The position numbers and the translations under genes are program-made. Positions 46,906 through 61,406 of a DNA stretch of 61,406 bases are shown here, one piece after another. The notes under the pieces are model-generated. The model had not been told where the DNA came from, ran no database searches, and saw only the letters and a program-made list of their open reading frames with translations. Source of the stretch: a bacterium (GTDB taxonomy: Bacteria; Patescibacteriota; CPR2; UBA1875; CAIMLA01); the NCBI GenBank assembly GCA_037140175.1, contig JBAXEY010000001.1, positions 1-61,406 on the forward strand, written 5' to 3'. The stretch's first letter is position 1; the number at the start of each line of letters is the position of its first letter.

Positions 46906-46923
46906 GGTCGCCCCCTAACTCAG

Positions 46924-48324: not shown

Positions 48325-48352
48325 TTGATTTTTTGTCTTTTTGGCATATAGT
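48325..48352 (+). promoter_or_regulatory. sigma70-like promoter, divergent from the GT4 gene
   Basis: TTGATT, 16-nt spacer, TATAGT. Confidence 0.4.
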
Positions 48353-48401
48353 AGGGCCTAGAACCGAACCTTGTCATCGTCATTATGAGGAGATGATGAT
48401 C

Positions 48402-48803: not shown

Positions 48804-48816
48804 TATTGGAGGAAAA

Positions 48817-49008
48817 ATGTACTGCAAATGGACTCTTCCACTCTCAGTTTATTTCCTTCTCATGGTCTGCCTATATTTTTGGTATCTTGTCTTTGAAATC
48901 TACTCCGCGGCCTTCCATCTCTCCCCTCTTCCTGCCCTCGCTTGCACTGTCGCTAGTGCCCTCGGGCTTTGTACGATTACTATGTACTTGTGTTTCCGGT
49001 CCTCATAA
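48817..49008 (+). CDS. possible small hydrophobic Cys-rich membrane peptide
   Basis: 63 aa. GGAGG lies 4 nt before the ATG, and the ORF starts 13 nt after the upstream stop. Two predicted TM helices and 5 Cys. Competing overlapping ORFs exist. Confidence 0.25.
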   Translation: MYCKWTLPLSVYFLLMVCLYFWYLVFEIYSAAFHLSPLPALACTVASALGLCTITMYLCFRSS

Positions 49009-49026
49009 TGCCGAAGAAGTTCGGGT

Positions 49027-49063
49027 GCCAGTTGAGAGTCCAGATTTTTGGCTCTCAACTGGC
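49027..49063 (+). other. perfect 12-bp stem / 13-nt loop RNA hairpin without U-tract
   Basis: GCCAGTTGAGAG-13 nt-CTCTCAACTGGC, about 20 nt after the sORF stop. Confidence 0.5.
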
Positions 49064-49084
49064 TAACCCCTTTGTAACAAAGCT

Positions 49085-49112
49085 TTGTAATAATAAATAT
49101 TCTTTGTATACT
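49085..49112 (+). promoter_or_regulatory. possible promoter
   Basis: TTGTAA, 16-nt spacer, TATACT. Confidence 0.3.
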
Positions 49113-49149
49113 ATGGACGTCTGGCAATATTTTAGGAGGTGGAAGTACC

Positions 49150-49452
49150 TTGATTGGAACAGATGATGTATATACCTTGGCTCAAGGCCCAAGTGAAGCC
49201 GCGCTACGTAAATATTATCGTGAATGGGTCGAACTCAACAAGATTATTCATCTCGTGACTGAAAAAGAACATTTTGAGATAAAGGTTGTCTCGATTTCCA
49301 AACCTATTCACGACGAATCTCCTTGGATCATCACTGGTCTACTGCCCAACAATCGCTATATCTTCATCAAATACCACGCGGGAAACAGCGCCGAGAATGG
49401 CGAGCCGGTTAATGCGATCGCATATTTTTGGTCCAGTCCTGAATCCCAATAA
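49150..49452 (+). CDS. hypothetical protein
   Basis: 100 aa. TTG start preceded by AGGAGGTGG. No motif recognised. Confidence 0.4.
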   Translation: MIGTDDVYTLAQGPSEAALRKYYREWVELNKIIHLVTEKEHFEIKVVSISKPIHDESPWIITGLLPNNRYIFIKYHAGNSAENGEPVNAIAYFWSSPESQ

Positions 49453-49455
49453 CAA

Positions 49456-49516
49456 AACGCCCTAAACACAACTCTTGTCTAATAAGAGATCGTCTGTGTT
49501 TGGGGCGTTCTCTTTT
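49456..49516 (+). terminator. long-stem terminator
   Basis: 15-bp stem (49456-49470 / 49495-49509, one G-U pair) enclosing a nested 5-bp hairpin, followed by CTCTTTT. Confidence 0.5.
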
Positions 49517-49567
49517 AAAAAATGAATAACTTTTAAACTATAAATTTATGTAGTGTCGGTTTTGAGC

Positions 49568-49596
49568 TTGAAAAAAGTTCTCTTCCGTGCTAAAAT
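49568..49596 (+). promoter_or_regulatory. sigma70-like promoter of the RlpA-like gene
   Basis: TTGAAA, 17-nt spacer, TGc-TAAAAT (extended -10). Confidence 0.5.
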
Positions 49597-49639
49597 CACC
49601 GAGGACATAGGGTGAAGCAACTTTACAACTCCAGAGGCC

Positions 49640-50218
49640 ATGTTATGGGGTCCTGACAAAACTGTCGGGATACCCAAACCAACTGAAGGAGACGTTTTGT
49701 CTTCTAAATTCAAAGTTCTCTACCTGGTAGTTGTCGCTCTGAGCGTGATTGCGCTCCTCGGCACAACGGCCGCCACCACCATGGCTCACACCAAGACCAT
49801 TCATTCGGTCACAGGTGATTTTCGAGCTGTGTCTGGGTGGCAAAAAACTGTATCGACCTGGTATGGACCAGGGTTCTACGGCAATCACACTGCATCGGGC
49901 AAGGTCATGCTCAGCAACTGTGGCAGGAACGTGCAAATGTGGAAGAAGAATCCACACAAGTACATCCTCTTTGGTGCCGCCAACCCAAACCAGTCATTGC
50001 CTCTCGGTACCTGGGTGGAGATCAACTACAACGGTGTTCGAATTGTCATCGAGGTCGCAGATCGTGGACCCAATTCCAGAACACTGGAGCTGATGGGCGC
50101 TACGAGAAGCTATCTCGACTATTTCGGTAAGAAGTACGTAAGACAAGGCAAGCTCAAGCACTACACTATCTTTTCTGGCAATCAGTCGCTAAGTTGGCGG
50201 ATTGTCAAAAAGATCTAA
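49640..50218 (+). CDS. membrane-anchored RlpA-like double-psi beta-barrel (DPBB) protein
   Basis: 192 aa. TM anchor, then TWYGPGFYGNHTASG...LPLGTWVEINYNGVRIVIEVADRGP, matching the RlpA/DPBB pattern. Confidence 0.7.
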   Translation: MLWGPDKTVGIPKPTEGDVLSSKFKVLYLVVVALSVIALLGTTAATTMAHTKTIHSVTGDFRAVSGWQKTVSTWYGPGFYGNHTASGKVMLSNCGRNVQMWKKNPHKYILFGAANPNQSLPLGTWVEINYNGVRIVIEVADRGPNSRTLELMGATRSYLDYFGKKYVRQGKLKHYTIFSGNQSLSWRIVKKI

Positions 50219-50270
50219 CCACGTCTGACCACACAATGGCCTGACGTTTCACCCACAACACCATGTCCAA

Positions 50271-50313
50271 GCCCCGACCTGAGTTCACTCTCAGGTCGGG
50301 GCGCTTCATTTTT
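50271..50313 (+). terminator. rho-independent terminator
   Basis: GCCCCGACCTGAG-ttcact-CTCAGGTCGGGGC followed by a T run. Confidence 0.8.
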
Positions 50314-50338
50314 AATATCAAAGCCCGTCTTAATATAG

Positions 50339-50367
50339 TTGACTAAAGGTTTGTTTAGTTTTATAAT
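50339..50367 (+). promoter_or_regulatory. near-consensus sigma70 promoter
   Basis: TTGACT, 17-nt spacer, TATAAT. Confidence 0.55.
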
Positions 50368-50408
50368 ATCGTAGTCCTATCCTGTATATCCTGTCGGGAG
50401 GTAGCTTG

Positions 50409-50777
50409 ATGTTTGAACTATTGGTCAAAATAGTTGGTCTCAATTTGGAAATTGGGCCGACAGTCTATTCTCCATCACAGATCGCTCTCGAAAGTGGAGC
50501 GCTACACGGCATGGAAGCAATGTTGGTCACCCAAGCTCTGCCAAAGCGGCGAATCAGATACAAAATCTTGATAGACACATCCAAAATTGACACCAATCCA
50601 AATGGAGCGGATACAGCCCTAATGTCTGGTGAGATCCTCAACGACACGGGTCAGCAAGTTGGTCATTTCGATGCCAAGGTCCAGCTCTTTAGCGGGAGGT
50701 GGATCGGAAATGCCCAGTTGATTTATTCGGATAAACCTCCGGCTCCTTCCATCCTCAGATTCTTGGAGACCATATGA
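50409..50777 (+). CDS. hypothetical protein
   Basis: 122 aa from the ATG at 50409. GGGAGG lies 7 nt upstream. No motif recognised. Confidence 0.45.
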   Translation: MFELLVKIVGLNLEIGPTVYSPSQIALESGALHGMEAMLVTQALPKRRIRYKILIDTSKIDTNPNGADTALMSGEILNDTGQQVGHFDAKVQLFSGRWIGNAQLIYSDKPPAPSILRFLETI

Positions 50778-51079
50778 CAACCATCACTGAGGCCGTCTCA
50801 AAACATGGAGATCTGTGGCCTTACGATAAGCTCGTACCTCTCGATCAGCTCCAAATCGGCGAGACCATCTTTGTCGACTTTGACCTCAACAGTCACCCCG
50901 TTTCACTACCATTCACTGTCTCCGAGATCATCCAAGACGCAACTTATCCCACTCTCGGCTTCGCTCGAGGCACTATTTTCGAAAAGTGTGCTAAGGGCCA
51001 ATTTGAGCACGGGGTAGTGATCACTTATGGTAGGTTCCCAACAATGCGACTCGGCAAGAGCCGCTATATCGGTCCCTGA
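50774..51079 (+). CDS. hypothetical protein
   Basis: 101 aa. ATGA overlap with the upstream gene. No motif recognised. Confidence 0.45.
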   Translation: MTTITEAVSKHGDLWPYDKLVPLDQLQIGETIFVDFDLNSHPVSLPFTVSEIIQDATYPTLGFARGTIFEKCAKGQFEHGVVITYGRFPTMRLGKSRYIGP

Positions 51080-51095
51080 TGTGATCTGGAGCAAG

Positions 51096-51132
51096 AAAAA
51101 GCCCCAGACTCTCATTGGGGGCTTTTTCTTTT
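51096..51132. terminator. bidirectional rho-independent terminator between convergent genes
   Basis: AAAAAGCCCC-12 nt-GGGGCTTTTT, with A/T runs on both sides. Confidence 0.7.
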
Positions 51133-51150: not shown

Positions 51151-53355
51151 TTATTCAGAAGAGACGTCCAATATCTTTGGCTCTGGTGTATGGTTGTCTT
51201 TTTCTGGCATTGCGTGCTTGCGATACGGAATCTTGAACCCAAAGGTTGAGCCATGGCCTTCTGATGATTCAAAGAATATTTCTCCACCATGATCCTCTAC
51301 GACTCTTTTGGCTAGATAAATACCCAGACCAGTCCCATCAGGTCGAATCTTGCGAGCATTACCCGCTCTAAAAAATTTCTCAAATATTTTCGGCTGTTCA
51401 GCCTTGGGAATGCCAACCCCAGTATCAACGACTGAGTAGATTACCATATCTTTTATTTTTTCTAATTTCACGGTCACACCACCTTCCTCGGTATAATAAA
51501 GTGCGTTGTCGATAAAATTCATTACAACCTGTCGAATCTTAGTCTCATCAACCCAAACATGAGGTATTTTGCCTGTTTTGGCAATCTTCAGATATAAACC
51601 CTTGTCCCCTGCTTGCTTTTGCAATTCTTTGACTTCCTGACTAACCAGCTCCTCGATATCAACCTCAGTCGGCTCGATGAAAAACCGTCCGGTATCCATC
51701 CGAGAAACATTCAAAAGATCATTGATAAGACCGACCATCCGACTCGATCCATCAAAGGCTTCATGGACAAATTCTTCCTGGCCCTTAGTAATCTTACCGA
51801 CATCGCCCTCCAGAAGCATCGAGAGGTAGCCTTTGATAACCGTCAGCGGAGTTCGCAGTTGGTGTGAAGCCATCGAGATAAACTCATCCTTGGCCTGATC
51901 AAGCTCACGAAGCTGGGCATTCTTTTCCTCCAGCCTTTTGGTTGCATGTTTGACTTCGTTTTTAAGGGTGACATTGAAACGGCTTATTTCCTCGTATGAT
52001 TTAGCATTTTCGATCGCAACCGAGACTTCGGGAGCGATAATCTCCAAGATACGAAGATCCTGCTGGTTAAACATATCACCTGAGTTTTTCTCTCCCAGAA
52101 GCAAAACACCGACGATTTCCTTCTCTGTCTTGAGAGGCAGAGAGATCGATGCTTCGAACTTACGGAGTGGCTCCTTATATTGAGAGTCCTCGTCTAGTTC
52201 ATCATAGACTGCTGTCCCGTTTCTGGCTAGACTCACGGCATCTTTCATGTCAATTTTTGGCTCGTCCTTGTATCCGCTCGTCTGAGTTGTATAGAGAGAG
52301 TAGTCTTCTTTAAAAAGGACAAAGATGCCTCGAGAAATTTTCATATCGCTAATCAGTATTTCTAAAACTTTGACCAAAAGTGCATCCAAAACTATGGTCG
52401 AGCTCATCAAATGAGACAGGTCGTCTAATAGCTTCTGTGGATCATAAGCATTTTTGAAAAATATTCGGTCAGTTTTGCGAGTGATCCAGCGACGCAAGGG
52501 CTGGAAAGAAAAGGCCATAATAACAGCCAAAACAGTTCTGATGGCCCCTTGGGTAAGATTGATCTGATCAAAGCTATCAGTGAAAAATATTCTTTCGATC
52601 GCGAGAACTGAACCAGCATAAAACAGAGCCAGTGTTGCTAAAAGAATGGCATAAGTTATTGATCTAGCAACTACAAGTCGAATGTCCATTAAGCGATGCT
52701 TTATAATGGCATAGGAGGTAAAGCCTAAAAAGAAAATCAAAGAGGAGGACACTATAGTTGCACCAACAATTTTATTTAAAAAGACTGATGCCACGAGTAA
52801 AGCCAATACAAACAGCACGGATAGAGTAATACCAAAAAGCATAAATTTTAGTTGAGCCTTAATTGCTCCTTGCGATTTTTTATATTTTATTATCAAAAGA
52901 CACAAGGCTGCAACCACATAAATAACAAAGTAAATTGGAAAATACGAGTAAATTGGGCCAGGGACGAGAGCATCAATTGAACCTGAATTCGTTAATGTTA
53001 TGGATAGGTTATAGTTTGTGAGCACAAAAGGAATAAATAATAAGGTAGGTACAAATATAAATATTTTTATCAAACTGCTTACCTTGGGTTTTTGGAATGG
53101 GAAATAAAAAGCAAACAATAACAACATAGGTGCTAGGAATATCGGTGCTATAATCGTTAGCCTGCTTAATGTTAACTCTAAATTTGGCTCTTGAGCAAAG
53201 TCAGCTAAAATATTAGTTGTTGTCCAAACAACCATTGAAGCACCAATTCCAGCAAAACTAAGGTTGATTGGATTATTAAGATTCCGTCTTAAAACCAAGC
53301 CAGTGATAACCATGGCTGCAAGCAAAACTGTTATAGATACTATAGAAGTTATCAT
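51151..53355 (-). CDS. polytopic sensor histidine kinase
   Basis: 734 aa. About 300 aa of TM helices, a GAF-like linker, H-box SMASHQLRTPLT, and N/G boxes (DNALYYT, GTGLGIYLAKR). No response regulator in the window. Confidence 0.85.
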   Translation of the reverse strand: MITSIVSITVLLAAMVITGLVLRRNLNNPINLSFAGIGASMVVWTTTNILADFAQEPNLELTLSRLTIIAPIFLAPMLLLFAFYFPFQKPKVSSLIKIFIFVPTLLFIPFVLTNYNLSITLTNSGSIDALVPGPIYSYFPIYFVIYVVAALCLLIIKYKKSQGAIKAQLKFMLFGITLSVLFVLALLVASVFLNKIVGATIVSSSLIFFLGFTSYAIIKHRLMDIRLVVARSITYAILLATLALFYAGSVLAIERIFFTDSFDQINLTQGAIRTVLAVIMAFSFQPLRRWITRKTDRIFFKNAYDPQKLLDDLSHLMSSTIVLDALLVKVLEILISDMKISRGIFVLFKEDYSLYTTQTSGYKDEPKIDMKDAVSLARNGTAVYDELDEDSQYKEPLRKFEASISLPLKTEKEIVGVLLLGEKNSGDMFNQQDLRILEIIAPEVSVAIENAKSYEEISRFNVTLKNEVKHATKRLEEKNAQLRELDQAKDEFISMASHQLRTPLTVIKGYLSMLLEGDVGKITKGQEEFVHEAFDGSSRMVGLINDLLNVSRMDTGRFFIEPTEVDIEELVSQEVKELQKQAGDKGLYLKIAKTGKIPHVWVDETKIRQVVMNFIDNALYYTEEGGVTVKLEKIKDMVIYSVVDTGVGIPKAEQPKIFEKFFRAGNARKIRPDGTGLGIYLAKRVVEDHGGEIFFESSEGHGSTFGFKIPYRKHAMPEKDNHTPEPKILDVSSE

Positions 53356-53370
53356 TTCCTCCGTTTCTTA

Positions 53371-54090
53371 CTACTTTTTAGCGGTTATTAGCCAATCTTG
53401 TCCAGATAAGGTTTCACCTATAACTATATTAACTAACCCCGTTTCTGTTAATAATTTCTTATATTCTTCTTTAGAATGAAAATGATAATTTCCTTTTTTT
53501 TCGAGTAACACTATAACGGAACTGGAGATTAATACAACAAGAACAAAAGGCGCAATAATAAAAGTTTTAAATATCCCTAGAAGTTTTCTTTTTTTTGTTT
53601 TACCCTTCAGAAAGTTAAAATAGGCCTTGATTACTTCTTTCATAGTGGAATCTGGTCGAGGATCAGCTATAACAACTCTTCCCCCTGGTTTTAATAACCT
53701 ATAAAATTCCTTTAATACTAAATCATTTTCATTGATAGTAAATAAAGCATTTATACAAGTTATTCTATCAAAACTACTTTTCTCAAAATCAATTTTTTTT
53801 CTTAGGTTTGCCCTTTGAAAGCTAACGTTTTTGAATTTTCTGCAATTTTTTTTTGCTCTTTTAATCATTTTATTTGAAAAATCCAAACCAATTATTTCTA
53901 TTTCAGACTCGTGCTCTGCTAAAAATTTTTCAAAATTACCTGTACCACAACCAGCATCTAAAATCTTATGGCCAACATCAAGGTTTAGCGCTTTTAAAAT
54001 GTCAAGAAACTGGAGTTGATGAGAAACAGAATTTTTAATAGTTCTATTATAGGCAAAAGCACAATAATCCCATAACTTAGAAGTGGTCAT
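53371..54090 (-). CDS. class I SAM-dependent methyltransferase with C-terminal TM segment
   Basis: 239 aa. Motif I ILDAGCGTGNF and a hydrophobic helix FIIAPFVLVVLISSSVIVLL. Confidence 0.75.
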   Translation of the reverse strand: MTTSKLWDYCAFAYNRTIKNSVSHQLQFLDILKALNLDVGHKILDAGCGTGNFEKFLAEHESEIEIIGLDFSNKMIKRAKKNCRKFKNVSFQRANLRKKIDFEKSSFDRITCINALFTINENDLVLKEFYRLLKPGGRVVIADPRPDSTMKEVIKAYFNFLKGKTKKRKLLGIFKTFIIAPFVLVVLISSSVIVLLEKKGNYHFHSKEEYKKLLTETGLVNIVIGETLSGQDWLITAKK

Positions 54091-54890
54091 TTTTGTCCCT
54101 TTAATAGTTCGTAAAAATCAATAAACATGTAATCTGGGGTTAGCGGTAGTTTATCAAGCTTGAGGATGTGTAAAATAATTGCCATTTCAAGTAAGGAAGC
54201 AGCTGCCATAACACCTAAGCTGCAACTTGGAATATAATTTTTTCTTAAAGCGACGTTTAATGCTGTTATTTTGGGGACGTATTTTGGTATTTTTGGACAA
54301 AACTTTAGCATGGGTATCTTAAAATTGTTAATTTCTATTGCTGTCATATGCTCTGGATTTTTTAAGCCAATATAGTCCGCAAAACTAATGCTTTTGTCAT
54401 TAAAAACATATAAACTTGCACCAAAGCCTAAAGCCTGAGCTGCCAGAACAGTCTTTTTTTTATTTCTTGCTGTTTCATGAAGAAGATACATCGGAAAGGT
54501 TAGGTTATATTCAATTGCATCAATTACAATATCAGCTTCAGTAAACTCCTCAACATTTTCATTATTCACGCCTTGCTTATACACTTGAACTTTGATATTT
54601 GAGTTTATTTTTTTGCATTCTTCTACAATTACTTCGACTTTTTGTTCTCTTATATTTTCTAAGTTTGAAAAAACCATCCGGTTAAGATTCGATATCTCAA
54701 AACTATCAGGCTCTGCTACTTTGAAGTTTTCAATGCCCAATCTCACTAATCTTTCAAACAGAATACCTCCAATACCGCCAAGACCGGCAATAGACACCAT
54801 GGAATTTCTTAAACTCTCTTGTTGTCTTTTTTTAAGAACTCCTATATTGCGCTGGAATATTTCATCATATGTATATTTTTGTTTTTCCAT
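54087..54890 (-). CDS. ThiF/MoeB/HesA-family E1-like adenylyltransferase
   Basis: 267 aa. SIAGLGGIGG nucleotide loop and SNLNRM motif. No CxxC zinc motifs and no obvious catalytic Cys loop. Confidence 0.7.
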   Translation of the reverse strand: MEKQKYTYDEIFQRNIGVLKKRQQESLRNSMVSIAGLGGIGGILFERLVRLGIENFKVAEPDSFEISNLNRMVFSNLENIREQKVEVIVEECKKINSNIKVQVYKQGVNNENVEEFTEADIVIDAIEYNLTFPMYLLHETARNKKKTVLAAQALGFGASLYVFNDKSISFADYIGLKNPEHMTAIEINNFKIPMLKFCPKIPKYVPKITALNVALRKNYIPSCSLGVMAAASLLEMAIILHILKLDKLPLTPDYMFIDFYELLKGQK

Positions 54891-54904
54891 TATACCTCTG
54901 TCAA

Positions 54905-54935
54905 AATTATAAACTTCCCTTGACTATAAAACAAC
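54905..54935 (-). promoter_or_regulatory. 31-nt promoter box, copy 1 (upstream of the ThiF-like gene)
   Basis: Minus strand GTTGTTTTATAGTCAAGGGAAGTTTATAATT, read as TTGTTT, 16-nt spacer, TATAAT. 27/31 identical to 56150-56180. Confidence 0.5.
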
Positions 54936-54965
54936 CGAGAGAGGCCATCCCTCTTTAGCCATAAC

Positions 54966-55325
54966 TTAATTTATTTTTTTAAATATTTTTTTATAAAATA
55001 TATATAAAGTAATTGAAAGGTAAAAAATCAAAAGTGCCCAAATCCAGATTGGAATATTCTTGCCCCAAATTATCACATATACATACGGCCCGAACCAGGC
55101 AACTTGATTTATAATAAATGCCCTAACAAACTCATGATGCTTTAAAATCTCTTTTCCTTTTAGATTATGATTTTTCTTTAGCTTGATAATAACTTTTGCC
55201 ATCACAAACAAACCATAATAATAAAATGGGATAGAAATTAGAATTAAGACAATAAATATATACGGGTCAACATCATATGTGTTTATAGCTAGATCTCTAT
55301 AATAATTAATTAAATTAAAGTCCAT
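54966..55325 (-). CDS. small three-TM membrane protein
   Basis: 119 aa, very hydrophobic. Overlaps the upstream gene by 11 nt. Confidence 0.4.
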   Translation of the reverse strand: MDFNLINYYRDLAINTYDVDPYIFIVLILISIPFYYYGLFVMAKVIIKLKKNHNLKGKEILKHHEFVRAFIINQVAWFGPYVYVIIWGKNIPIWIWALLIFYLSITLYIFYKKIFKKIN

Positions 55326-56127
55326 TAGGAATCTCTTTCTTCGCAGTAAAGACTTTCCATATATTCAATATTGCCCTCACAACCACGTCACGACCTTTGT
55401 TTTTATAAACATAATATTCACCAAAATCATTCACTCGTTTATCGCTATGGGTAATTTTTTTACTAAAAAGAAGCTGGGGCTTGTCATCATAAAAACCCTC
55501 CATAATGTTACCTTCTCTGTCTAATGATCGGTATAATTCCCCTTCTTCCTGAAGAAATTTTTTAACCGTTCGCCACGTTTCGGCATCTGCTTTTTCAATT
55601 TTATGATTTTTTGGATCAATCATATATGGATTTGGGTAAATAAAATCAGCCACGCGAGCAATTGCCCCCAAAGTACGGATATTGGGGGTAATAAAAACAA
55701 ATTCAACTTTAAATTTTCCCTTTATAGCATTTTCGATTAATACTTTTCTTCCTAAAATATAGTCCATCGTCTTTAATACTCCACAATTCTGGTATTTTGG
55801 CGTTGTCGCGGACAGGCCAAATGTGTAAATATCTCTGCCAAATATTTTATGTTTGCGAATCGGTGCAATACCTATCAAATCTCCTTCTTTATTCCGCACG
55901 ATACATAACAAATAAGATTGGATACAGCCCTTACGGATGTATTCCGAATTGTATTCCCCCCAGGCTTCAGCAACTAAACCTTTTATTTCTTTGAGTGCGA
56001 TATCTTTGGCGACCTCGCCTATTTTGACATCTGGGTCCTTAATAATCTCGGCGAAGACTATTTCTTCTGTATTATTTCTACGTATTTTAACTTCTTTTAT
56101 TTTGCTTTTTTGTGTATATCGAGTCAT
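55315..56127 (-). CDS. uncharacterised 270-aa protein (only a weak GNAT-like hint)
   Basis: Long intact ORF. YQNCGVLKTM only loosely resembles the acyl-CoA-binding motif of GNATs, so the family is not assigned. Confidence 0.35.
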   Translation of the reverse strand: MTRYTQKSKIKEVKIRRNNTEEIVFAEIIKDPDVKIGEVAKDIALKEIKGLVAEAWGEYNSEYIRKGCIQSYLLCIVRNKEGDLIGIAPIRKHKIFGRDIYTFGLSATTPKYQNCGVLKTMDYILGRKVLIENAIKGKFKVEFVFITPNIRTLGAIARVADFIYPNPYMIDPKNHKIEKADAETWRTVKKFLQEEGELYRSLDREGNIMEGFYDDKPQLLFSKKITHSDKRVNDFGEYYVYKNKGRDVVVRAILNIWKVFTAKKEIPNGL

Positions 56128-56149
56128 TTATTTGCTTATTTATAAGCTC

Positions 56150-56180
56150 AATTATAAACTTCCCCAAGCTATAAAACAAC
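56150..56180 (-). promoter_or_regulatory. 31-nt promoter box, copy 2 (upstream of the 270-aa gene)
   Basis: Minus strand GTTGTTTTATAGCTTGGGGAAGTTTATAATT. A partial third copy, TATAAAACAA, is at 56196-56205. Confidence 0.5.
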
Positions 56181-56290
56181 AGGCGGATTCAGGTTTATAA
56201 AACAATATTTGTCCTGAAATTGCAGGTATTTATGCTATAATAAGCCAAAAGGATTACTAAATATGCAAGAATACAAAGAATATTTTATAC

Positions 56291-56332
56291 AAAAAGAAAA
56301 GCCGTAACAGCGGATAAATCCACTGTTACGGC
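56291..56332 (-). terminator. rho-independent terminator after the amidohydrolase gene
   Basis: GCCGTAACAG-12 nt-CTGTTACGGC, followed on the minus strand by TTTTCTTTTT. Confidence 0.75.
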
Positions 56333-56335
56333 AAA

Positions 56336-57253
56336 TTATATACCAAGATAAGCCCTTGTGTTTAACCAAGCAATATCTTTTCTGATACTTACGGTGAGAG
56401 AGTCGAGAAACATTTTCTCTCTTTCATAATTAGTGCCTCTAGCCTCTCTATCTTTCCACGTCCTCGTAACTTTCGTCCAAGGCTCATCTGTCCCCCATAG
56501 AAGTCTTTTTGGAATCAAATTGTTCAGCTCAATAATTACTTTTTCTGGTGAATTGTAGTCTAGCGGAAGTAAGCCAATTTCGTCTTTTTCCGATGCATCC
56601 TTGCAAAGCAACAGAAATGGAGAGACATCAACATATATGTTTGGATGTTGAATAACCTCACACCAGAATTTCTTAAGAAAGCGTCCACAGTGAGCAACAC
56701 AGACTCGTACCTCAGGATATTTTTCTGCAAATCTTATTACATTGAGAGGATGGCTTGCTAAGTCTCTGCCGGAATGAGTTAATATCGGCCAGTTATTTTT
56801 ACTTGCCAGTTCTAACAAAAGTGGGTTTATTTCTGTGACCCCACAATTAGTTTCTAGGGTGAATAGCTTTAGCCCATAAAGACCAAACTTAGCGTGTAGG
56901 CTTTCGAGTAAATCACATTGCTTTCTAACGTTTTCTGTAGGATGGTATGCCGCAAAGGGTAAAACATTAGCCCCAAATAGCGCAGTTTCCATCATCAGAT
57001 AATTGTTGGATAGTTCATATGGAAACTGTTTTTTACTCTCGACAGCTTCGAAAGGAAGGTACATACTCATACTGGTACAAATTAACCAGTTTACATTGTT
57101 ATATAATGCCTTTCTAACTAAATCTTCAATACTTTGTACACTTGGGTATATCGTTCTGGCATAGTTGTAAACCGAAATTCCTGCATGAGTATGACAATCA
57201 ATAACCCCAGTTTGCTGACCCTTGATCTCTGCTAATTTGTTTCTGCAGTCCAT
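56336..57253 (-). CDS. amidohydrolase_2-type metal-dependent hydrolase (TIM barrel)
   Basis: 305 aa. VIDCHTHAG, HCGR and WGTDEPW motifs. The start overlaps the tyrS 3' end by 22 nt. Confidence 0.7.
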   Translation of the reverse strand: MDCRNKLAEIKGQQTGVIDCHTHAGISVYNYARTIYPSVQSIEDLVRKALYNNVNWLICTSMSMYLPFEAVESKKQFPYELSNNYLMMETALFGANVLPFAAYHPTENVRKQCDLLESLHAKFGLYGLKLFTLETNCGVTEINPLLLELASKNNWPILTHSGRDLASHPLNVIRFAEKYPEVRVCVAHCGRFLKKFWCEVIQHPNIYVDVSPFLLLCKDASEKDEIGLLPLDYNSPEKVIIELNNLIPKRLLWGTDEPWTKVTRTWKDREARGTNYEREKMFLDSLTVSIRKDIAWLNTRAYLGI

Positions 57254-58494
57254 CCTCTCTCACCTGCTTTCGCTCTGTGAGAGTTAACCTTAAACCATTT
57301 TCTTTTACCAACTTTAACCAAAATATTAGTTTTTGTCAGATCTACTTTGTCATCTATGTCTACTGTTCTACCCTCTATAGTCATAGCTCCTTGTTCAATC
57401 AGACGACGAATCTCAGAGTTACTACACTGATCTTTTGGCAAGCAGAGTCTCAACAGTTCAAAACCCGTTAAGCTTTTCCCCATAACAATTACTTCTGGAA
57501 TATCTTCAGGAATCTGTCTTTGACTAAAAGTTTTCTTAAACCAAACATATTCCTTGTTGGCAACAATTTCACCGTGATAACGTTTGACAATTTCCCGCGC
57601 AAGCATTAGTTTATACTTCATAGGATCGTCGACGTAAACTTTTTCTATTGATTGAATTTCTGTTAGAGAAACGTCTGTGTAGACCTCAAAGTATTGGTGG
57701 ATAAGATTGTCGGGCATGCTCATAACCCTACCAAATTTTTCTCTGGGGGTATGTGCAAGCCCTATGTAGTTACCCAGACTTTTGCTTTGCTTGGCCCGGC
57801 CATCGATGCCCGGAGTGATTTTTGTTGTTAAAATCACTTGAGGCCTTTGGCCAAACTTAACTTGCAAGGATCGACCCATCATCTCATTAAAAAGTTGATC
57901 GGATCCAATGATGGTCAAATCAGATTCTAATTGCACAGAATCGAAACCTTGCAAAACTGGATAAACCAATTCGTGCTCGTAGATCTCTTTCCCTTCTTTA
58001 ATGCGCTTTCTGAACATATCGCGAGAAACAAGAAAGTCATGAGTGACGCCTGACAAAAGAGACAGTAATTCCCTGGCCTTTAATGGTTCTAGCCACTCAG
58101 AATTGCGTCTTATTTCTAATACTTCTGGGTCATTCAACAACACCATTTTTGCTTGTCGCAAAAATTCGTCAGAGTTTCGCTGGATATCTTCTTTTGAGAT
58201 AATTGGTCTAAGTTTGTTTTTACCAGTCGGATCGCCAATCTGTGTTGTAAAGTCTCCTATAAGAAATATTATCTTGTGGCCCATTTCCTGTAGTTTTCGA
58301 TACATCCAGAGGTTAACTGCATGACCGATGTGTAAATCAGAAGCTGTAACATCTACTCCATATTTCATACGCAGCCTCTTACCCGAAAGAAGTCTTGTTT
58401 TCAACTCTTCCAAAGTAAATACATCGTCGGTTGTCCGCGTAAAACAATCTAGAAGACGATCAACTGCTTCTTCGTTAGAAATAATTTTTTTCAT
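57232..58494 (-). CDS. tyrS: tyrosine--tRNA ligase with C-terminal S4-like domain
   Basis: 420 aa. HIGH motif (LHIGHAVNL), GDFTTQIGDPTGK, KMSKS variant KQSKSLGN, and an S4-like C-terminal region. Confidence 0.85.
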   Translation of the reverse strand: MKKIISNEEAVDRLLDCFTRTTDDVFTLEELKTRLLSGKRLRMKYGVDVTASDLHIGHAVNLWMYRKLQEMGHKIIFLIGDFTTQIGDPTGKNKLRPIISKEDIQRNSDEFLRQAKMVLLNDPEVLEIRRNSEWLEPLKARELLSLLSGVTHDFLVSRDMFRKRIKEGKEIYEHELVYPVLQGFDSVQLESDLTIIGSDQLFNEMMGRSLQVKFGQRPQVILTTKITPGIDGRAKQSKSLGNYIGLAHTPREKFGRVMSMPDNLIHQYFEVYTDVSLTEIQSIEKVYVDDPMKYKLMLAREIVKRYHGEIVANKEYVWFKKTFSQRQIPEDIPEVIVMGKSLTGFELLRLCLPKDQCSNSEIRRLIEQGAMTIEGRTVDIDDKVDLTKTNILVKVGKRKWFKVNSHRAKAGERGWTAETN

Positions 58495-58570
58495 TTTACC
58501 AGCACTCCTTTTTGAGAGGTATCTATTGTCAAAGAGCGAACAAGCCTTGAAAGCTCCTGTCTGATGAATG

Positions 58571-58600
58571 ATTGTATGCCATTTCCCTCACTTTTGTCAA
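58571..58600 (-). promoter_or_regulatory. sigma70-like promoter of tyrS
   Basis: Minus strand TTGACA (58600-58595), 18-nt spacer, TACAAT (58576-58571). The leader is about 70 nt and ends in AAAGGAG. Confidence 0.5.
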
Positions 58601-58677
58601 GTCCATTATTGTTGCTTTCTCTCACGATTCTCCTTTTATAATATTCGAGTAATAATTATAGCAGGGAAAAATTTATT

Positions 58678-59646
58678 TTAACATAATAATTCTTTTGGGA
58701 TCCCAAGACATGATTCTTTAAAACTGCATTTAGCACATCGGGGCAATCTAATAAAAAGCTTATCGTTTAAATTAACCGCAGTTTGTTGTAAATTTTTGCT
58801 TACAATGTGCATGTCTGAATCTATGAAAACATAATTAATTTTTTTCCCCGAAAGCTCCACTGATGTTTCGACTGTGCTTTTCGCTTGTTCCCATAATAGA
58901 TCAATATATCGATTCGTTGTCCCGTTTTTTATTTCAAGAATACAGGCTACTGAGGGATGGATATAAATGCTTATTTTTGAACTATACTTTTTAACAATTT
59001 CTCCTAGCTGAGACGCAACAGATAAATAATCATCTGGTAAAATCCAGGGGTATTCTCTAATTCTATCTTCTGTGCCAAAAGGAAAGCGGAATTCAATCCC
59101 ATGGACTTTTCTCTTAACAAGATAGTCAGCTATACGGCTTAGTTCACTTTGGTTTGGCTTCATTATCAATGTATTTGCATCAACAGTAAGACCCATTTTT
59201 ATATAATTGTTTAGATTTTTTTTTATCTTATCTAGTGTCTTTGTTTGTGTGAATAAACGGTGTGTATGATTTGATAGAGTATGAAAAGAATTAAAAATAA
59301 TTGTATTAAACTTTACTAAATTTTTTATATCACTTTCTTTTGATATGGCCAGCCCGTTTGTGTGTAGCACAATTTCTTTTGGCTTAATATAAGTTTCAAT
59401 ATCTTCTAAAATTTTCCGGAAATCTGGTCTAATAGTTGGTTCACCTCCAGAAATAATTACTCTCTCTAGGTTGGGGTACTGATTCTTAATTTTTTTAAAT
59501 ACTAGTACGAATTTATTCCGACTTTGAGACAACTGGGGCTTTTTACGGTGAGCAAAAACACAAAAACTGCAATTCAAGTTGCAGAAATAACTGACTTTTA
59601 TCTCAAGAAATGTCTTTTCCAAAAATATATTTTCAGGTTTATTCAT
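58678..59646 (-). CDS. radical SAM protein with short C-terminal Cys motif
   Basis: 322 aa. CNLNCSFC (CxxxCxxC), GGEPT, and C-terminal CAKCSFKESC. Lies 6 nt downstream of the SPASM enzyme gene. Confidence 0.8.
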   Translation of the reverse strand: MNKPENIFLEKTFLEIKVSYFCNLNCSFCVFAHRKKPQLSQSRNKFVLVFKKIKNQYPNLERVIISGGEPTIRPDFRKILEDIETYIKPKEIVLHTNGLAISKESDIKNLVKFNTIIFNSFHTLSNHTHRLFTQTKTLDKIKKNLNNYIKMGLTVDANTLIMKPNQSELSRIADYLVKRKVHGIEFRFPFGTEDRIREYPWILPDDYLSVASQLGEIVKKYSSKISIYIHPSVACILEIKNGTTNRYIDLLWEQAKSTVETSVELSGKKINYVFIDSDMHIVSKNLQQTAVNLNDKLFIRLPRCAKCSFKESCLGIPKELLC

Positions 59647-59652
59647 AAATAT

Positions 59653-61173
59653 TCAATCAAATTTATTAATTATCTGATCTATACTTTTATTTTGCAAAGG
59701 GTAAAAACCATTTTTATTAATATATGTGGAAATAATTTTCTTGTTTTTTCTATCCAAAAGTGGCCAAATTGTTACCTCGGCCCGTGATAGCAAGTTACAG
59801 GCACTATTGTCCTGGCCATACTCTGTGTCAGGGGCGAAAGGATTATTCTTTTTTATGGCCCTATCATTGACACATTGGCCCTGACAAAGGTGTTCATATC
59901 GGCAATTATTACATTTATTTGAGACGATTTCTTCGGTTAGGTCATAAAAACTGTTTTCTTTGATACTTTGAAGCATTACTTCTAACAAATCTCCGTCCTT
60001 GATATTTGCGTTAGTCTGCGGCTTTGCTAGCAGGCATTCCATAATTTCTCCTTTTGGTCCGATAATCAGATACGAACCATGGCAAGGAAAACAGGGATGG
60101 TTGTCAAAACATTGAGTTGCTACTGTATACCCTTTATCAAACATTTCATGCTTAAAAAGCAAAGGAATAGATAGTTGGAACGGATACCCTTTATCACGAT
60201 GTATCTTGACTAAGTAATAAGTGAGCTTCACTACTTTTTCATAGTCTGGAATGTATTTATGGTTTCTTTTTAGGGCATTTTTTAGTTCATCAACAATGTA
60301 TGGGAAGCTAATCGTCCACCTATCCACCTTATTTTCAATAGCAAATTGATATATTTTATTTAACACTTTTTTTGAACAAAGATTTTCTGTCCACATTGAA
60401 TTGATACTAATTTTAATACCAGGAAGCTCTTTACGTATATTTATTAGTTTCTTGTAATGAATTTTGGAATATTTTGTATTAGAAAGTCCTTTTTCTGTAC
60501 TCAGCCCATCAATAGATGAATGCAAATGAAACTTGTTAGCCTTATGTAGGGTAATTTCTTTTAATTCTTGCAAGTGTTCAGTTATTAGTGACGAATTACT
60601 TAATAGCTCCACTTCATTCAAGCTTTCTTTTGATAAAGCATATTTTACTAAAGATATTACGCCTTTCTTTGTCAACGGCTCACCTCCCGTTATTTTTATG
60701 CTGCCCGACCCTAAAATGGCGGCTTGATCGATTATTTTTTTTAACTCATCGATACTCAATTCATAATATTGCGCTTTTCTAACAAGTTTTTCCCAGTCTG
60801 TGTCTCTTGAGCGTTGATAACAATATTCGCATTCATAATTACAAATGGCCGTAACATTTAAGTCTAGTTTACGCCTCAATTTGTCTAACAAAAGTCTTGT
60901 TGGCCTGTCAGGATGGAAAAGAGCAATAAATTCAGCAAAAGTTAGGCTCTCAAATTTTGCATTAATACTTCTTTGCTGCGCTGGCTCATAGTTTAAAAAC
61001 CACCCATCTCTAATTTTTTTGTAAAAAAAACCACTTTCTACTGAAATATGATTACTTTTAAGAATTTTTTCAAGATTTGTATAACTGCTTTTAAACAAAA
61101 TTTCTGAGTCTTTAAACTCCCGAAATATATGATTATAGCTATAATAAAATATTTCTTCTAAAGTATTCTTCAT
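59653..61173 (-). CDS. radical SAM/SPASM-domain enzyme with about 100-aa N-terminal extension
   Basis: 506 aa. CNYECEYC, GGEPL, and C-terminal CFPCHG...ECL...CNNCRYEHLCQGQC, typical of SPASM auxiliary-cluster domains. Confidence 0.85.
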   Translation of the reverse strand: MKNTLEEIFYYSYNHIFREFKDSEILFKSSYTNLEKILKSNHISVESGFFYKKIRDGWFLNYEPAQQRSINAKFESLTFAEFIALFHPDRPTRLLLDKLRRKLDLNVTAICNYECEYCYQRSRDTDWEKLVRKAQYYELSIDELKKIIDQAAILGSGSIKITGGEPLTKKGVISLVKYALSKESLNEVELLSNSSLITEHLQELKEITLHKANKFHLHSSIDGLSTEKGLSNTKYSKIHYKKLINIRKELPGIKISINSMWTENLCSKKVLNKIYQFAIENKVDRWTISFPYIVDELKNALKRNHKYIPDYEKVVKLTYYLVKIHRDKGYPFQLSIPLLFKHEMFDKGYTVATQCFDNHPCFPCHGSYLIIGPKGEIMECLLAKPQTNANIKDGDLLEVMLQSIKENSFYDLTEEIVSNKCNNCRYEHLCQGQCVNDRAIKKNNPFAPDTEYGQDNSACNLLSRAEVTIWPLLDRKNKKIISTYINKNGFYPLQNKSIDQIINKFD

Positions 61174-61197
61174 TTAGATCTTTTTGGTACCGTCCAA

Positions 61198-61223
61198 CGT
61201 TTGATAGCCAATACTATCAAACG
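61198..61223 (-). promoter_or_regulatory. perfect 10-bp stem / 6-nt loop hairpin between the sORF and the radical SAM gene
   Basis: CGTTTGATAG-ccaata-CTATCAAACG. No U-tract follows on the minus strand. Confidence 0.45.
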
Positions 61224-61225
61224 AG

Positions 61226-61315
61226 TTAGTTTAGGTAGCGCGAAACAATTGATGTACTCTCATTGCTCTTTTTGCTAATGAATACACCCTTCATGAAAAG
61301 AATTAGTTTTTGCAT
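61226..61315 (-). CDS. 29-codon sORF, candidate precursor/leader peptide
   Basis: Hand translation gives MQKLILFMKGVFISKKSNESTSIVSRYLN, with AAAGGG 4 nt before the ATG. It sits between a strong promoter and the radical SAM genes. It is too short for the ORF track and has no other support. Confidence 0.25.
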   Translation of the reverse strand: MQKLILFMKGVFISKKSNESTSIVSRYLN

Positions 61316-61345
61316 TTTTCCCTTTGCTTATCTCTAATATAGAAC

Positions 61346-61373
61346 ATTATAGTGCTAATTATTTTAAAGTCAA
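61346..61373 (-). promoter_or_regulatory. near-consensus sigma70 promoter of the radical SAM operon
   Basis: Minus strand TTGACT (61373-61368), 16-nt spacer, TATAAT (61351-61346). Confidence 0.5.
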
Positions 61374-61406
61374 TGTGGAACTTGATAAACATTAGTAATA
61401 ATATAT

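Follow-up and report, generated by a model that had tools for sequence, protein, structure and literature searches.

Peptides that act on aminoacyl-tRNA synthetases (aaRSs), or that are matured by radical S-adenosylmethionine (rSAM) enzymes, provide the closest described counterparts of the gene block considered here, which occupies positions 51151-61406 of a 61-kb window (61,406 nt, the whole stretch of DNA that was analysed; contig JBAXEY010000001.1) from a genome of the Patescibacteria, or candidate phyla radiation (CPR). Microcin C, which depends on MccA, MccB, MccD and MccE, is a peptide-nucleotide Trojan horse, and pyrroloquinoline quinone (PQQ) and mycofactocin are small molecules derived from the C-terminal Tyr of a peptide. 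Among the peptides that are ribosomally synthesised and modified after translation (RiPPs), the recently described tiarins are trifolitoxin-like Trojan-horse inhibitors of aaRSs (Travin et al., bioRxiv 10.64898/2025.12.02.691738). Their clusters hold a second aaRS whose specificity corresponds to a conserved core residue and which confers immunity, GNATs providing further immunity, and they are defined by the TfxB/TfxC pair of flavin mononucleotide-dependent dehydrogenases together with a conserved Gln that is converted into a fluorophore (bioRxiv 10.64898/2025.12.02.691738). Triceptides are three-residue cyclophanes formed by rSAM/SPASM enzymes at an aromatic-X-X motif through an aromatic-to-C-beta crosslink (PMC11499958). 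Finally, the streptococcal grc RiPP cluster combines the ThiF-like GrcB, provided with an N-terminal RiPP recognition element (RRE), with the two rSAM enzymes GrcC and GrcD and a precursor (PMC12596934), and the characterised ThiF-like enzymes of RiPP pathways (MccB, PaaA, GrcB, IndF) carry either an RRE or a peptide clamp (PMC12150305; PMC12596934).

Judged from its sequence, the present block departs from each of these nearest systems (tiarins, triceptides, microcin C, PQQ and mycofactocin, grc) in at least one defining feature. It very probably consists of two independent conserved modules lying side by side in one genome. Module 1 (56301-61373, minus strand) comprises a small open reading frame (sORF), an rSAM/SPASM enzyme, a second rSAM enzyme, a tyrosyl-tRNA synthetase (TyrRS) and an Amidohydro_2 hydrolase; module 2 (51151-56180, minus strand) comprises a divergent GNAT of 270 aa, a protein with three transmembrane segments (3-TM), a cysteine-less ThiF, a methyltransferase and a 7TM-GAF kinase. 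The best explanation of the whole, that of a peptide cassette having the TyrRS as target and immunity copy beside a CPR-specific co-regulated unit, is held at even chances. Pfam, NCBIfam and PADLOC contain no model for the sORF peptide, for the SPASM enzyme at family level, or for the 270-aa and 3-TM proteins, and the full-text literature returned nothing on a TyrRS combined with a radical-SAM enzyme and a precursor peptide, or on a TyrRS in gene-cluster self-resistance. The cassette of module 1 is described by no curated family or paper found, and module 2 likewise represents an undescribed conserved module.

Two gene modules side by side

The distinction between the two modules arises from their distribution in relatives. 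The closest relative (L012, with 89% identity in the 270-aa protein) carries module 2 and, in the retrieved 10 kb on each side, no rSAM, tyrS or amidohydrolase gene. Conversely, none of the module-2 genes occurs within the retrieved flank (up to ~6 kb) of the module-1 relatives L026-L038, which represent seven distinct lineages. Besides, the gene order of module 2 is kept over 19 loci, and a 31-nt promoter/operator element precedes the units of module 2, none being found before the sORF or tyrS. A sequence-only reading of the same DNA had treated the nine or ten genes as one system, on the grounds of adjacency and composition, and had proposed a comparison of gene neighbourhoods. This comparison does reveal two gene sets that are each conserved as units, the ThiF, methyltransferase, kinase, 270-aa and 3-TM genes forming one of them, but these sets are never found together elsewhere among the loci examined, and the single ten-gene system was rejected on synteny. 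The suggestion of a peptide-tailoring locus is for its part supported for module 1, where a conserved precursor-like sORF adjoins a SPASM-type rSAM enzyme.

Base composition does not mark one system either. The mean GC content of the window is 0.398, with 0.354 in the block versus 0.407 in the remaining 51 kb, in which 1-kb windows show a standard deviation of 0.026 and a minimum of 0.354. The block had been called extremely AT-rich: its GC content is indeed below that of the rest, and the examples put forward (8 G+C in 60 nt at 59281-59340 and 38 in 60 at 49741-49800) are exact on recount, but the dip is modest and patchy, so that "extremely" was an overstatement. Two AT-rich patches, at 53356-56335 (GC 0.319) and 58495-61406 (GC 0.324), enclose tyrS and the amidohydrolase gene, whose GC content of 0.390 is genome-typical, and the likewise genome-typical kinase gene bounds them. 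At the level of genes, the methyltransferase (0.294), ThiF (0.330), 3-TM (0.253), 270-aa (0.357), 322-aa rSAM (0.318) and 506-aa rSAM/SPASM (0.329) genes are AT-rich, and a drop of GC at third codon positions to 0.21-0.31 is confined to these six, whereas the kinase (0.404), tyrS (0.392) and amidohydrolase (0.387) genes are genome-typical.

The architecture that had been read from the letters stands, in that the coordinates, minus-strand orientation and domain assignments of the nine genes and of a 29-aa sORF all hold. The block is closed by a bidirectional terminator (51096-51132, both strands) whose GC stem stands between an A-run and a T-run, and the terminator placed 3' of the amidohydrolase gene corresponds to a strong intrinsic-terminator-like hairpin (56301-56332, minus strand; 14-bp stem and T-run) that ends module 1. 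The four transcription units match promoter-like sites before the sORF (61346-61373, minus strand; TTGACT, 16 nt, TATAAT, with 11/12 consensus matches, as a consensus match only) and before tyrS (58571-58600, minus strand; TTGACA, 18 nt, TACAAT, 11/12 consensus matches), together with the 31-nt element at 56150-56180 and 54905-54935.

A precursor-like peptide linked to rSAM enzymes and a TyrRS

The first gene of module 1 is the 29-aa precursor-like sORF (61226-61315, minus strand), recognised through an open-reading-frame call and homologous sORFs in relatives. Its product, MQKLILFMKGVFISKKSNESTSIVSRYLN, is hydrophobic and rich in Lys in its N-terminal part and ends in the conserved sequence S-R-Y-L-N. 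The module-1 sample includes nine lineages, namely the window, the L026-group, L036, L028, L037, L029, L030, L031 and L039, and a pattern search detected in eight of them a sORF of 26-34 aa that ends in Y-L-[N/S]-stop within a few genes of the rSAM/SPASM gene. The corresponding peptides are MKTFFYFLKGLLFSKQRKEITSLISNYLN in L026, MSAFFYLIKGIFSINKKSREITSFISRYLN in L028, MMKLLKKIYKKLVSKREFSFSSRYLS in L037, MSPLARFTAILRSYTKTRRSTRVRVTSAGSRYLS in L029, MTTFIGNLFRSLFKKPVDRKGLTTSTASRYLS in L030 and MMKFAANLFRSLFRKSADRKGLTTSTASRYLS in L031; the window peptide ends in Asn and several of the others in Ser. In these Y-L-N/S sORFs the Tyr codon is single and lies three codons before the stop, and most of them are preceded by a good Shine-Dalgarno site. 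The ninth lineage, L039, has two paralogous sORFs that keep a Tyr (..ITSDYCD.. and ..NCSYCGD..). Between L026 and L036, 13 of the 90 nt of the sORF differ, with only two amino-acid changes plus an ATG-to-TTG start codon, a comparison that points to purifying selection on the sORFs. As far as conservation and context indicate, the sORF is thus a conserved, precursor-like gene adjoining a SPASM-type rSAM enzyme, and it is probably a real peptide gene and the substrate of this enzyme.

The enzyme in question, of 506 aa (59653-61173, minus strand), matches PF04055 (60.6 bits) and the SPASM model TIGR04085 (35.7 bits vs a cut-off of 27). Its CxxxCxxC motif (C111/C115/C118) is invariant across relatives, and so is a complete SPASM set, the motif of two auxiliary clusters (C361, C364, C380, C421, C424, C430, C434, C459). 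An AlphaFold2 (AF2) model with a mean predicted local distance difference test (pLDDT) score of 83.6 has SuiB and SkfB, both peptide maturases, as its best fold matches, with MoaA, viperin, anSME and PqqE coming next. The family is small, with only 19 related clusters in 5.8 billion proteins. Between the sORF stop and the start of this gene lies a 10-bp hairpin (61198-61223, minus strand), whose stem is present in both the minimum-free-energy and the centroid folds (region z-score -1.9); it is possibly an attenuator or a processing site setting the precursor-to-enzyme ratio, and none was found at the equivalent position in relatives. The second rSAM enzyme, of 322 aa (58678-59646, minus strand), has the radical-SAM motif C22/C26/C29 and C-terminal cysteines, with a conserved C235 and C304-x2-C307-x5-C313, the C-terminal cysteines being the probable ligands of an auxiliary cluster. 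Its orthologues, ~44% identical, directly follow the SPASM enzyme in L026 and L028, and L036 has an orthologue too.

The tyrS gene (57232-58494, minus strand) encodes a full-length TyrRS of 420 aa that reaches 271.9 bits with TIGR00234 over residues 13-404 (cut-off 113.8) and possesses the HIGH (HIGH) and KMSKS-like (KQSKS) motifs and the C-terminal domain that binds tRNA. Its best solved-structure matches are 6bqy, with which it aligns end to end, and 1h3e (Thermus thermophilus TyrRS). Control of tyrS by a T-box or another RNA element was rejected, the region before the gene matching no Rfam element (T-box or riboswitch). The spacer between the rSAM gene and tyrS also contains a 44-aa ORF with a GTG start (58491-58625, minus strand) that overlaps the tyrS start by 4 nt; one metagenome copy (L005) has a gene call for it, and it is probably spurious. 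The amidohydrolase gene (56336-57253, minus strand), whose start overlaps the end of tyrS by 22 nt, encodes an Amidohydro_2 metal-dependent TIM-barrel hydrolase of 305 aa (PF04909, 50.7 bits) with invariant metal ligands H21, H23, H160, H188 and D256. It is found in the CPR cassettes L026 and L028, and the high-GC versions lack it.

In nine of the nine lineages, at every locus retrieved, the rSAM/SPASM gene has a TyrRS gene no more than a few genes away. This linkage overturned the idea that tyrS and the amidohydrolase gene are unrelated housekeeping insertions: as judged from gene neighbourhoods, both go specifically with the sORF and the pair of rSAM genes, in the most conserved association of the block. 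The sequence-only reading had listed tyrS and the amidohydrolase gene as a separate transcription unit and had not suggested this association. In the L026-group (Candidatus Shapirobacteria; rSAM/SPASM 50-51% identical to that of the window), the order is tyrS, sORF, rSAM, rSAM, amidohydrolase. The same order is met in L028 (Candidatus Microgenomates, 45%) with the amidohydrolase on the opposite strand, and up to the second rSAM gene, where the contig ends, in L036 (metagenome, 50%); in L037 (metagenome, 35-40%), tyrS, sORF and rSAM/SPASM are followed by the contig end. Three high-GC loci (L029-L031, GC 0.57-0.67, 37-41% to the window) have the rSAM/SPASM gene facing two unknown genes and a TyrRS gene. 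The sORF belongs to the same facing group in L030, which has ArdA and TIR genes nearby, and in L031, where the cassette comes directly after a tRNA-Met and an integrase gene; in L029 (Frankia sp. Mgl5), it lies beyond the TyrRS gene on the opposite strand, with MmeI-type and SNF2 genes nearby. The most distant locus, L039 (30%), has the rSAM/SPASM gene and then the TyrRS gene, with two flanking sORFs. There, over positions 1426-4909, the SPASM enzyme is flanked by the paralogous sORFs MLKMIALFASKQKRTLNITSDYCDMADAPIA and MLKRIAKFIGSQKHPLNLNCSYCGD... and followed by a TyrRS of 390 aa, on a contig with many small ORFs and a DUF1353 gene.

In the high-GC cassettes, two proteins of no known family stand in place of the second rSAM enzyme and the amidohydrolase (L029 7759-9472; L030 6908-8702; L031 8615-10412). 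One of them, of 266-271 aa, has a Walker-A P-loop (GPxxxGKTS); an HprK-like identity, suggested by a Pfam E-value of 0.22 only, was not accepted. In L031, positions 5317-11942 contain the tRNA-Met, a tyrosine-type integrase and then the rSAM/unknown/P-loop/TyrRS/sORF cassette, which looks like the cargo of an integrated element. For L029-L031 as a group, the context suggests that the TyrRS is mobile-element cargo and a second genomic copy, the Frankia cassette TyrRS being named from a single strain. No copies of the cassette were found in plasmid, phage and IMG/VR sets, none of the cassettes holds a tRNA-Tyr gene, and a Fem-like Acetyltransf_6 gene was seen only beside the L026-group loci. Comparison of the window with L026 gives 51% identity for the rSAM enzyme and 37% for the TyrRS, versus 35% and 58%, respectively, with L037. 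Since these identities are incongruent, the parts of the cassette would have been exchanged while the linkage was kept, and the AT-rich rSAM pair beside a genome-typical tyrS and amidohydrolase fits a replacement of the rSAM part by transfer. Taken together, these loci indicate that the peptide, the SPASM enzyme and the TyrRS travel together across phyla, in at least three very different kinds of genomes.

In comparison with tiarin clusters, module 1 similarly brings together a precursor, tailoring enzymes and an aaRS matched to a core residue, here a TyrRS and an invariant Tyr in all lineages. A GNAT is often nearby in tiarin clusters, and this genome has an Acetyltransf_3 GNAT a short way upstream of the sORF; both groups also show a cross-phylum spread that includes Actinomycetota. 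However, TfxB/TfxC domains are absent from all genes of the block and of related loci, the aligned cassette peptides have no conserved Gln, the chemistry is of the radical-SAM/SPASM kind with a C-terminal Y-L-N/S motif, and the text of the tiarin paper mentions neither TyrRS nor radical SAM (bioRxiv 10.64898/2025.12.02.691738). With triceptides, module 1 shares an rSAM/SPASM maturase and a short precursor, in which Y-L-N/S formally fits aromatic-X-X, but the YhhB model (NF041707) is matched at 34.8 bits vs a cut-off of 445 and none of the matches listed is to a cyclophane-maturase model at or above its cut-off. In addition, the crosslink is a prediction in module 1, and no triceptide cluster known to us contains an aaRS gene. 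The likeness to microcin C lies in the aaRS-targeting RiPP proposed here, in an Asn-ended precursor, and in the ThiF-family, methyltransferase-like and GNAT genes of the window. Against this, the window ThiF lacks the N-terminal peptide clamp of MccB and belongs to module 2, near no peptide in the other lineages searched, and several of the homologous peptides end in Ser. As for PQQ and mycofactocin, the common features are a peptide of ~30 aa with a Tyr near its C-terminus, a SPASM enzyme and a metal-dependent hydrolase, as well as a gene for an M16 peptidase (PqqF-like) shortly after the end of the window. The differences are scores far below the cut-offs for MftC (TIGR03962, 39.8 vs 265) and PqqE (TIGR02109, 36.7 vs 381), the lack of a PqqD/MftB chaperone or RRE in module 1, and the absence of an aaRS from these pathways. 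The grc cluster, at last, has the same mix of gene types as the block (ThiF-like enzyme, two rSAMs, precursor peptide), but the window ThiF has no RRE, and ThiF and the rSAM enzymes belong here to separately inherited modules. By analogy, module 1 would thus be an rSAM RiPP cluster with a cluster-borne target copy, which would work like a tiarin cluster through a different chemistry without being one.

In the mechanism proposed, the SPASM enzyme would bind the sORF peptide and introduce a radical crosslink or another modification at the terminal Tyr-Leu-Asn/Ser. The second rSAM enzyme and the hydrolase of the CPR cassettes would then tailor or trim the peptide, a role that would be taken in the high-GC loci by the P-loop protein and the unknown protein. 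The product, or a proteolytic fragment exposing the Tyr, would mimic tyrosine or tyrosyl-adenylate and thereby block TyrRS, the linked TyrRS being the insensitive target copy of the producer. That the TyrRS is both target and immunity copy is given somewhat less than even chances. The fuller proposal, a new RiPP class with a SPASM-made, TyrRS-specific warhead formed from a C-terminal Tyr-X-Asn/Ser and a resistant TyrRS in the cassette, is advanced tentatively, well short of an even chance. Under this proposal, the cassette TyrRS may in minimal CPR genomes double as the only housekeeping TyrRS, and on actinobacterial mobile elements it would be an extra copy.

Several observations weigh against such an interpretation. 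The active-site motifs of the TyrRS look ordinary, the composition of its gene (GC 0.392) is genome-typical, and it may be the sole TyrRS of a small genome, in which case the linkage could reflect housekeeping co-regulation rather than immunity. The rSAM/SPASM enzyme reaches no curated (equivalog) family cut-off and shows no RRE, its N-terminal 100 aa being all-helical in the AF2 model and without a PqqD match in Pfam; the RRE, a PqqD-like winged helix, is common in rSAM/SPASM maturases and is not universal among them. The residue before the Tyr is Asn, not Arg, in the peptides from Shapirobacteria, the Tyr is not near the C-terminus in the L039 sORFs, and the cassette has no conserved exporter.

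Other explanations have been considered in this context. One would unite all ten genes in a single tailoring system, in which ThiF would activate a carboxylate of the sORF peptide, for example at its C-terminal Asn in the manner of MccB in the microcin C pathway, while the methyltransferase and the GNAT would tailor or detoxify, the 3-TM protein would export or immunise and the kinase would regulate. The ten genes are adjacent and on one strand, and the window peptide ends in Asn, the residue required by MccB. The gene sets are however separate everywhere else examined, and the 31-nt element is absent from the module-1 promoters; this view is very improbable, even though non-orthologous rSAM/peptide cassettes adjoin module 2 in L007, L009, L011 and L015, the grc cluster joins a ThiF-like enzyme with two rSAMs (PMC12596934) and tiarin clusters often hold ThiF-like enzymes, methyltransferases and GNATs (bioRxiv 10.64898/2025.12.02.691738). 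In particular, an MccB-like action on an Asn-terminal peptide was rejected, as the ThiF protein (267 aa, with its domain from residue 13) has neither RRE nor peptide clamp and is never found with this peptide in the other lineages searched, and as several cassette peptides end in Ser.

It is also conceivable, and judged unlikely, that the TyrRS serves biosynthesis or metabolism, either through a Tyr-tRNA-dependent step or beside a peptide acting as scaffold for a Tyr-derived molecule or cofactor. In this latter version, the SPASM enzyme would crosslink the Tyr and the amidohydrolase would excise it, as compared with PQQ and mycofactocin, the TyrRS being present for supply or co-regulation. The presence of PqqE among the fold matches, the weak MftC and PqqE profile matches, the parallel in architecture (short Tyr-ended peptide, SPASM enzyme, metal hydrolase), the lack of a conserved exporter and the resemblance of the CPR TyrRS to a normal housekeeping enzyme all agree with it, and aaRS genes are known, too, from clusters that have tRNA-dependent steps, e.g. 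that of valanimycin (bioRxiv 10.64898/2025.12.02.691738). Nevertheless, no aminoacyl-tRNA-using enzyme family (PEARL/LanB-like, cyclodipeptide synthase) is conserved in the cassette, the MftC and PqqE scores are far under their cut-offs and unaccompanied by a PqqD/MftB-like domain, and a complete extra TyrRS on high-GC mobile elements with different tailoring genes is more easily explained by immunity. Still less probable is that the sORF encodes a cis-acting leader or arrest peptide which would sense tyrosine or Tyr-tRNA and control the tyrS/rSAM operon, with something else tied to tyrosine, tRNA-Tyr or TyrRS as the substrate of the rSAM enzymes and the hydrolase. The constant position of one Tyr codon three codons before the stop would suit this role, as would the location of the sORF, which immediately precedes TyrRS in L030 and L031 and lies upstream of the rSAM genes in CPR loci, and the hairpin 3' of the sORF in the window; arrest peptides such as TnaC likewise have conserved C-terminal residues. 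But the sORF does not keep one place relative to tyrS, coming downstream of it in L026, L028 and L037 and lying on the opposite strand in L029. The hairpin also lacks conservation, and a single Tyr codon makes a weak sensor. Moreover, a short conserved ORF with a SPASM enzyme is the standard signature of peptide maturation, in line with the peptide maturases found as best folds.

The kinase-linked module and its surroundings

From its conservation, gene overlaps and shared promoter element, module 2 appears to be a Patescibacteria-specific, co-regulated and translationally coupled unit. It was followed in 19 distinct loci, including CPR2 and metagenome-assembled genomes (MAGs) labelled Saccharibacteria, with the recurring order GNAT-like gene, 3-TM gene, ThiF, (methyltransferase) and histidine kinase; of these 19 loci, 15 have the kinase, 12 the 3-TM gene, 11 the methyltransferase and 10 ThiF. 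The 31-nt promoter/operator element GTTGTTTTATAGCTTGGGGAAGTTTATAATT lies before the GNAT-like gene (56150-56180, minus strand), with a second copy before ThiF (54905-54935, minus strand). It has the form GTTGTTTTATAG-N3-RGGGAAGTTTATAATT, and these are the only two copies in 61 kb at up to 3 mismatches, with 0 expected. A third copy precedes the gene for a 189-aa GNAT (GNAT189, Acetyltransf_3) outside the window (L001 2141-2171). Orthologous genes in L012 and L011 are also preceded by the conserved element; its consensus with the conserved spacer is GTTGTTTTAT(A/G)G-N3-(G/A)GGGAAGTTTATAATT, and a dedicated regulator may bind there.

The first protein of the module, of 270 aa (55315-56127, minus strand), has no Pfam match. 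Its AF2 model (pLDDT 90), submitted to the structure search that the sequence-only reading had recommended, turned out to have a GNAT fold, with Foldseek matches to GNATs (NatD, YhbS) at an E-value of ~1e-6 and a probability of 1.0 over ~135 residues only, followed by a family-specific C-terminal extension of ~100 aa. Weak Acetyltransf_1 matches are seen in 8 of 20 family members, and, where GNATs have the acyl-CoA pyrophosphate loop Q/R-x-x-G-x-G/A, the sequence reads V-x-P-x-Y-(Q/R)-x-x-(G/S/D) in most members without being invariant, the last G/A being replaced; the family profile gave no sequence match among solved structures. Clustering at 90% identity gives 39 clusters for this family among 5.8 billion proteins, and a profile search of 1.84 billion gave 92 representatives; the named members all belong to the Patescibacteria. 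One relative (P0074, 494 aa) is a natural fusion of a GNAT-like domain (13-256) with a UbiE-like methyltransferase (~296-475). The 3-TM protein, of 119 aa (54966-55325, minus strand), belongs to no Pfam family, and its gene start overlaps the end of the GNAT-like gene by 11 nt, which suggests translational coupling of the two. A short GC hairpin with a T-rich tail (54938-54954, minus strand) is recognised in the sequence after the 3-TM gene.

The ThiF-family adenylyltransferase, of 267 aa (54087-54890, minus strand), amounts to a lone adenylation domain and matches PF00899 over residues 13-256. Its best NCBIfam match is NF006077 (158 bits vs a cut-off of 266), every named equivalog being below cut-off, and the structure search gave 9egb/9egc as closest solved structures (E 3e-16), followed by ThiF, TcdA and MccB. 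The ATP site is invariant or nearly so in the family (R14, N15, G36-G42, R50, N68, N70, R71, K84, D120, D124), and the family alignment contains no invariant Cys, either as thioester/persulfide Cys or as CxxC zinc site. The enzyme is therefore predicted to adenylate a carboxylate without forming an E1-type thioester. It has no N-terminal peptide-binding domain and, with a domain that begins at residue 13, no room for one. Two substrates were tried and set aside, namely an mccA-like mini-ORF hidden in the gap that separates the 3-TM gene from ThiF, which is only 10-46 nt in relatives, and a C-terminal Gly-Gly or Asn of the 270-aa or 3-TM proteins, which is not conserved. The gene of the class-I S-adenosylmethionine methyltransferase (UbiE/COQ5-like, 239 aa; 53371-54090, minus strand) overlaps the ThiF stop by 4 nt, and its product, taken to be membrane-anchored, has a C-terminal hydrophobic segment. 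The sensor histidine kinase, of 734 aa (51151-53355, minus strand), combines HisKA_7TM (PF16927), GAF (PF13185), HisKA (PF00512) and HATPase_c (PF02518) domains. The window has no homologue of the 128-aa receiver found as response regulator in relatives, where it lies ~7 kb upstream.

Further indications come from the genes that surround module 2 in relatives. At 26-31% identity, the arrangement is reduced to the GNAT-like gene, a methyltransferase or phosphatidylserine decarboxylase (Psd) gene in some cases, and the kinase, with a PlsC-type acyltransferase just upstream. The Psd gene (PF02666) occupies the slot of 3-TM and ThiF at L020 10719-11328, L021 10713-11393 and L024 554-1246; the L021 copy scores 155.7 bits and the L020 copy is split into two ORFs. 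Many closer loci have, a few kb upstream, genes for a thioredoxin, the 128-aa response regulator, a lysophospholipase-like hydrolase and an acyl-CoA-synthetase-like protein, and a patatin gene is also among the neighbours. Because PlsC, Psd, acyl-CoA-synthetase-like, lysophospholipase-like and patatin genes recur nearby, and because Psd takes the place of 3-TM and ThiF, Psd and ThiF both acting on a carboxyl group, module 2 may act on a membrane-lipid head group, a guess of rather low confidence drawn only from neighbours in relatives. Against it, rSAM/peptide cassettes not orthologous to module 1 recur beside module 2 in L007, L009, L011 and L015, so that the kinase module may have a peptide link after all. 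The module would then acylate, carboxyl-activate and methylate the head group, and its kinase would sense the membrane state or the product. Known head-group enzymes of aminolipids and phospholipids include the N- and O-acyltransferases OlsB/OlsA or OlsF, Psd and PmtA-type methyltransferases. In keeping with these, relatives place the GNAT-fold gene by a PlsC-type acyltransferase, Psd and a UbiE-like membrane methyltransferase; however, the 270-aa family matches neither the OlsB type (Acetyltransf_5) nor another named family, and we know of no head-group pathway with a ThiF-family enzyme or a dedicated 7TM kinase.

Alternatively, module 2 could pair a signal synthase (GNAT-like protein, ThiF and methyltransferase) with its receptor kinase, for a diffusible or membrane-bound signal comparable to LuxM/LuxN or CqsA/CqsS, or its kinase could sense the peptides of nearby rSAM cassettes. 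The tightest pair is indeed that of the GNAT-like gene and the kinase, kept at 26-31% identity where ThiF and 3-TM are absent. Acyl-homoserine-lactone synthases are GNAT-like in fold, with genes that adjoin polytopic sensor kinases in Vibrio and Legionella, and varied rSAM/peptide cassettes recur upstream of module 2. This alternative is nonetheless unlikely, for no autoinducer synthase was matched by sequence or among the top-50 folds, the recurring neighbours are phospholipid enzymes, and the closest relative, L012, is without a nearby rSAM cassette.

The cassettes in question lie just upstream of module 2 in L007 and L011, with rSAM genes also adjoining in L009 and L015. They are not orthologous to module 1, their rSAM enzymes belonging to different families (at most 25% identity), and were rejected as such. 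Positions 6379-8976 of L007 and 2928-7170 of L011 contain rSAM/SPASM genes, then Cys/Asp-rich peptides of 43-59 aa (e.g. SSGSSSSCDECYSGDSGCECYGEQCDCDRTPCDD), and also paralogous unknown proteins of ~230 aa, so that these regions look like a variable hot spot for peptide cassettes. L011 has in addition two copies of the 3-TM family (2273-2704 and 9552-9908), one of which adjoins the rSAM/peptide cassette.

The same contig was found in other metagenomes and in the MAG GCA_964597635.1, in which the sequence runs past the window end. Just beyond lie the Acetyltransf_3 GNAT (189 aa) and a divergent M16 peptidase (PqqF-like). This GNAT has a look-alike in L012 and is not assignable to the cassette of module 1 since L012 is free of it; the M16 gene is likewise present in relatives without module 1. 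Membership in a defence system was rejected, the PADLOC models giving no system-specific match and only a generic similarity of the rSAM core to pVip (45-57 bits) and a generic E1 similarity. At the other side of the block, GAPDH, PGK and TIM directly follow the kinase in L008, and GAPDH and PGK are located at 40131-42376 in the window, in which ~9 kb (42400-51100) appear inserted relative to L008. This apparent insert holds a tRNA-Glu (42737-42811), a Fic protein (43371-44240), an ABC-2 transporter pair and a GT4 glycosyltransferase, and its last part (48.3-51.1 kb) consists of GC-richer (0.44-0.46) small plus-strand genes of no assigned function.

Implications for CPR bacteria

If module 1 does encode a TyrRS inhibitor, the rule established for tiarins, according to which the aaRS of the cluster matches the conserved residue of the precursor, would extend to radical-SAM chemistry. 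The predicted target, TyrRS, has few natural inhibitors, and we are aware of no earlier RiPP directed against it. The combination of Y-L-N/S-COOH with a SPASM enzyme and a TyrRS moreover offers a handle for mining further peptides, and the small size of the cassette, with four or five genes, makes a direct test by heterologous expression feasible.

For the CPR bacteria themselves, module 1 would then be, as far as we know, the first target-predictable antibiotic-like gene cluster family in the Patescibacteria. It would provide a rare predicted bioactive product with a predicted target in these episymbiotic organisms, whose chemical interplay with hosts and competitors is, to our knowledge, little described. 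The CPR bacteria that have module 2 are unable to make their own lipids, and the role of this compact, lineage-specific and kinase-linked module could bear on how they remodel scavenged membranes.

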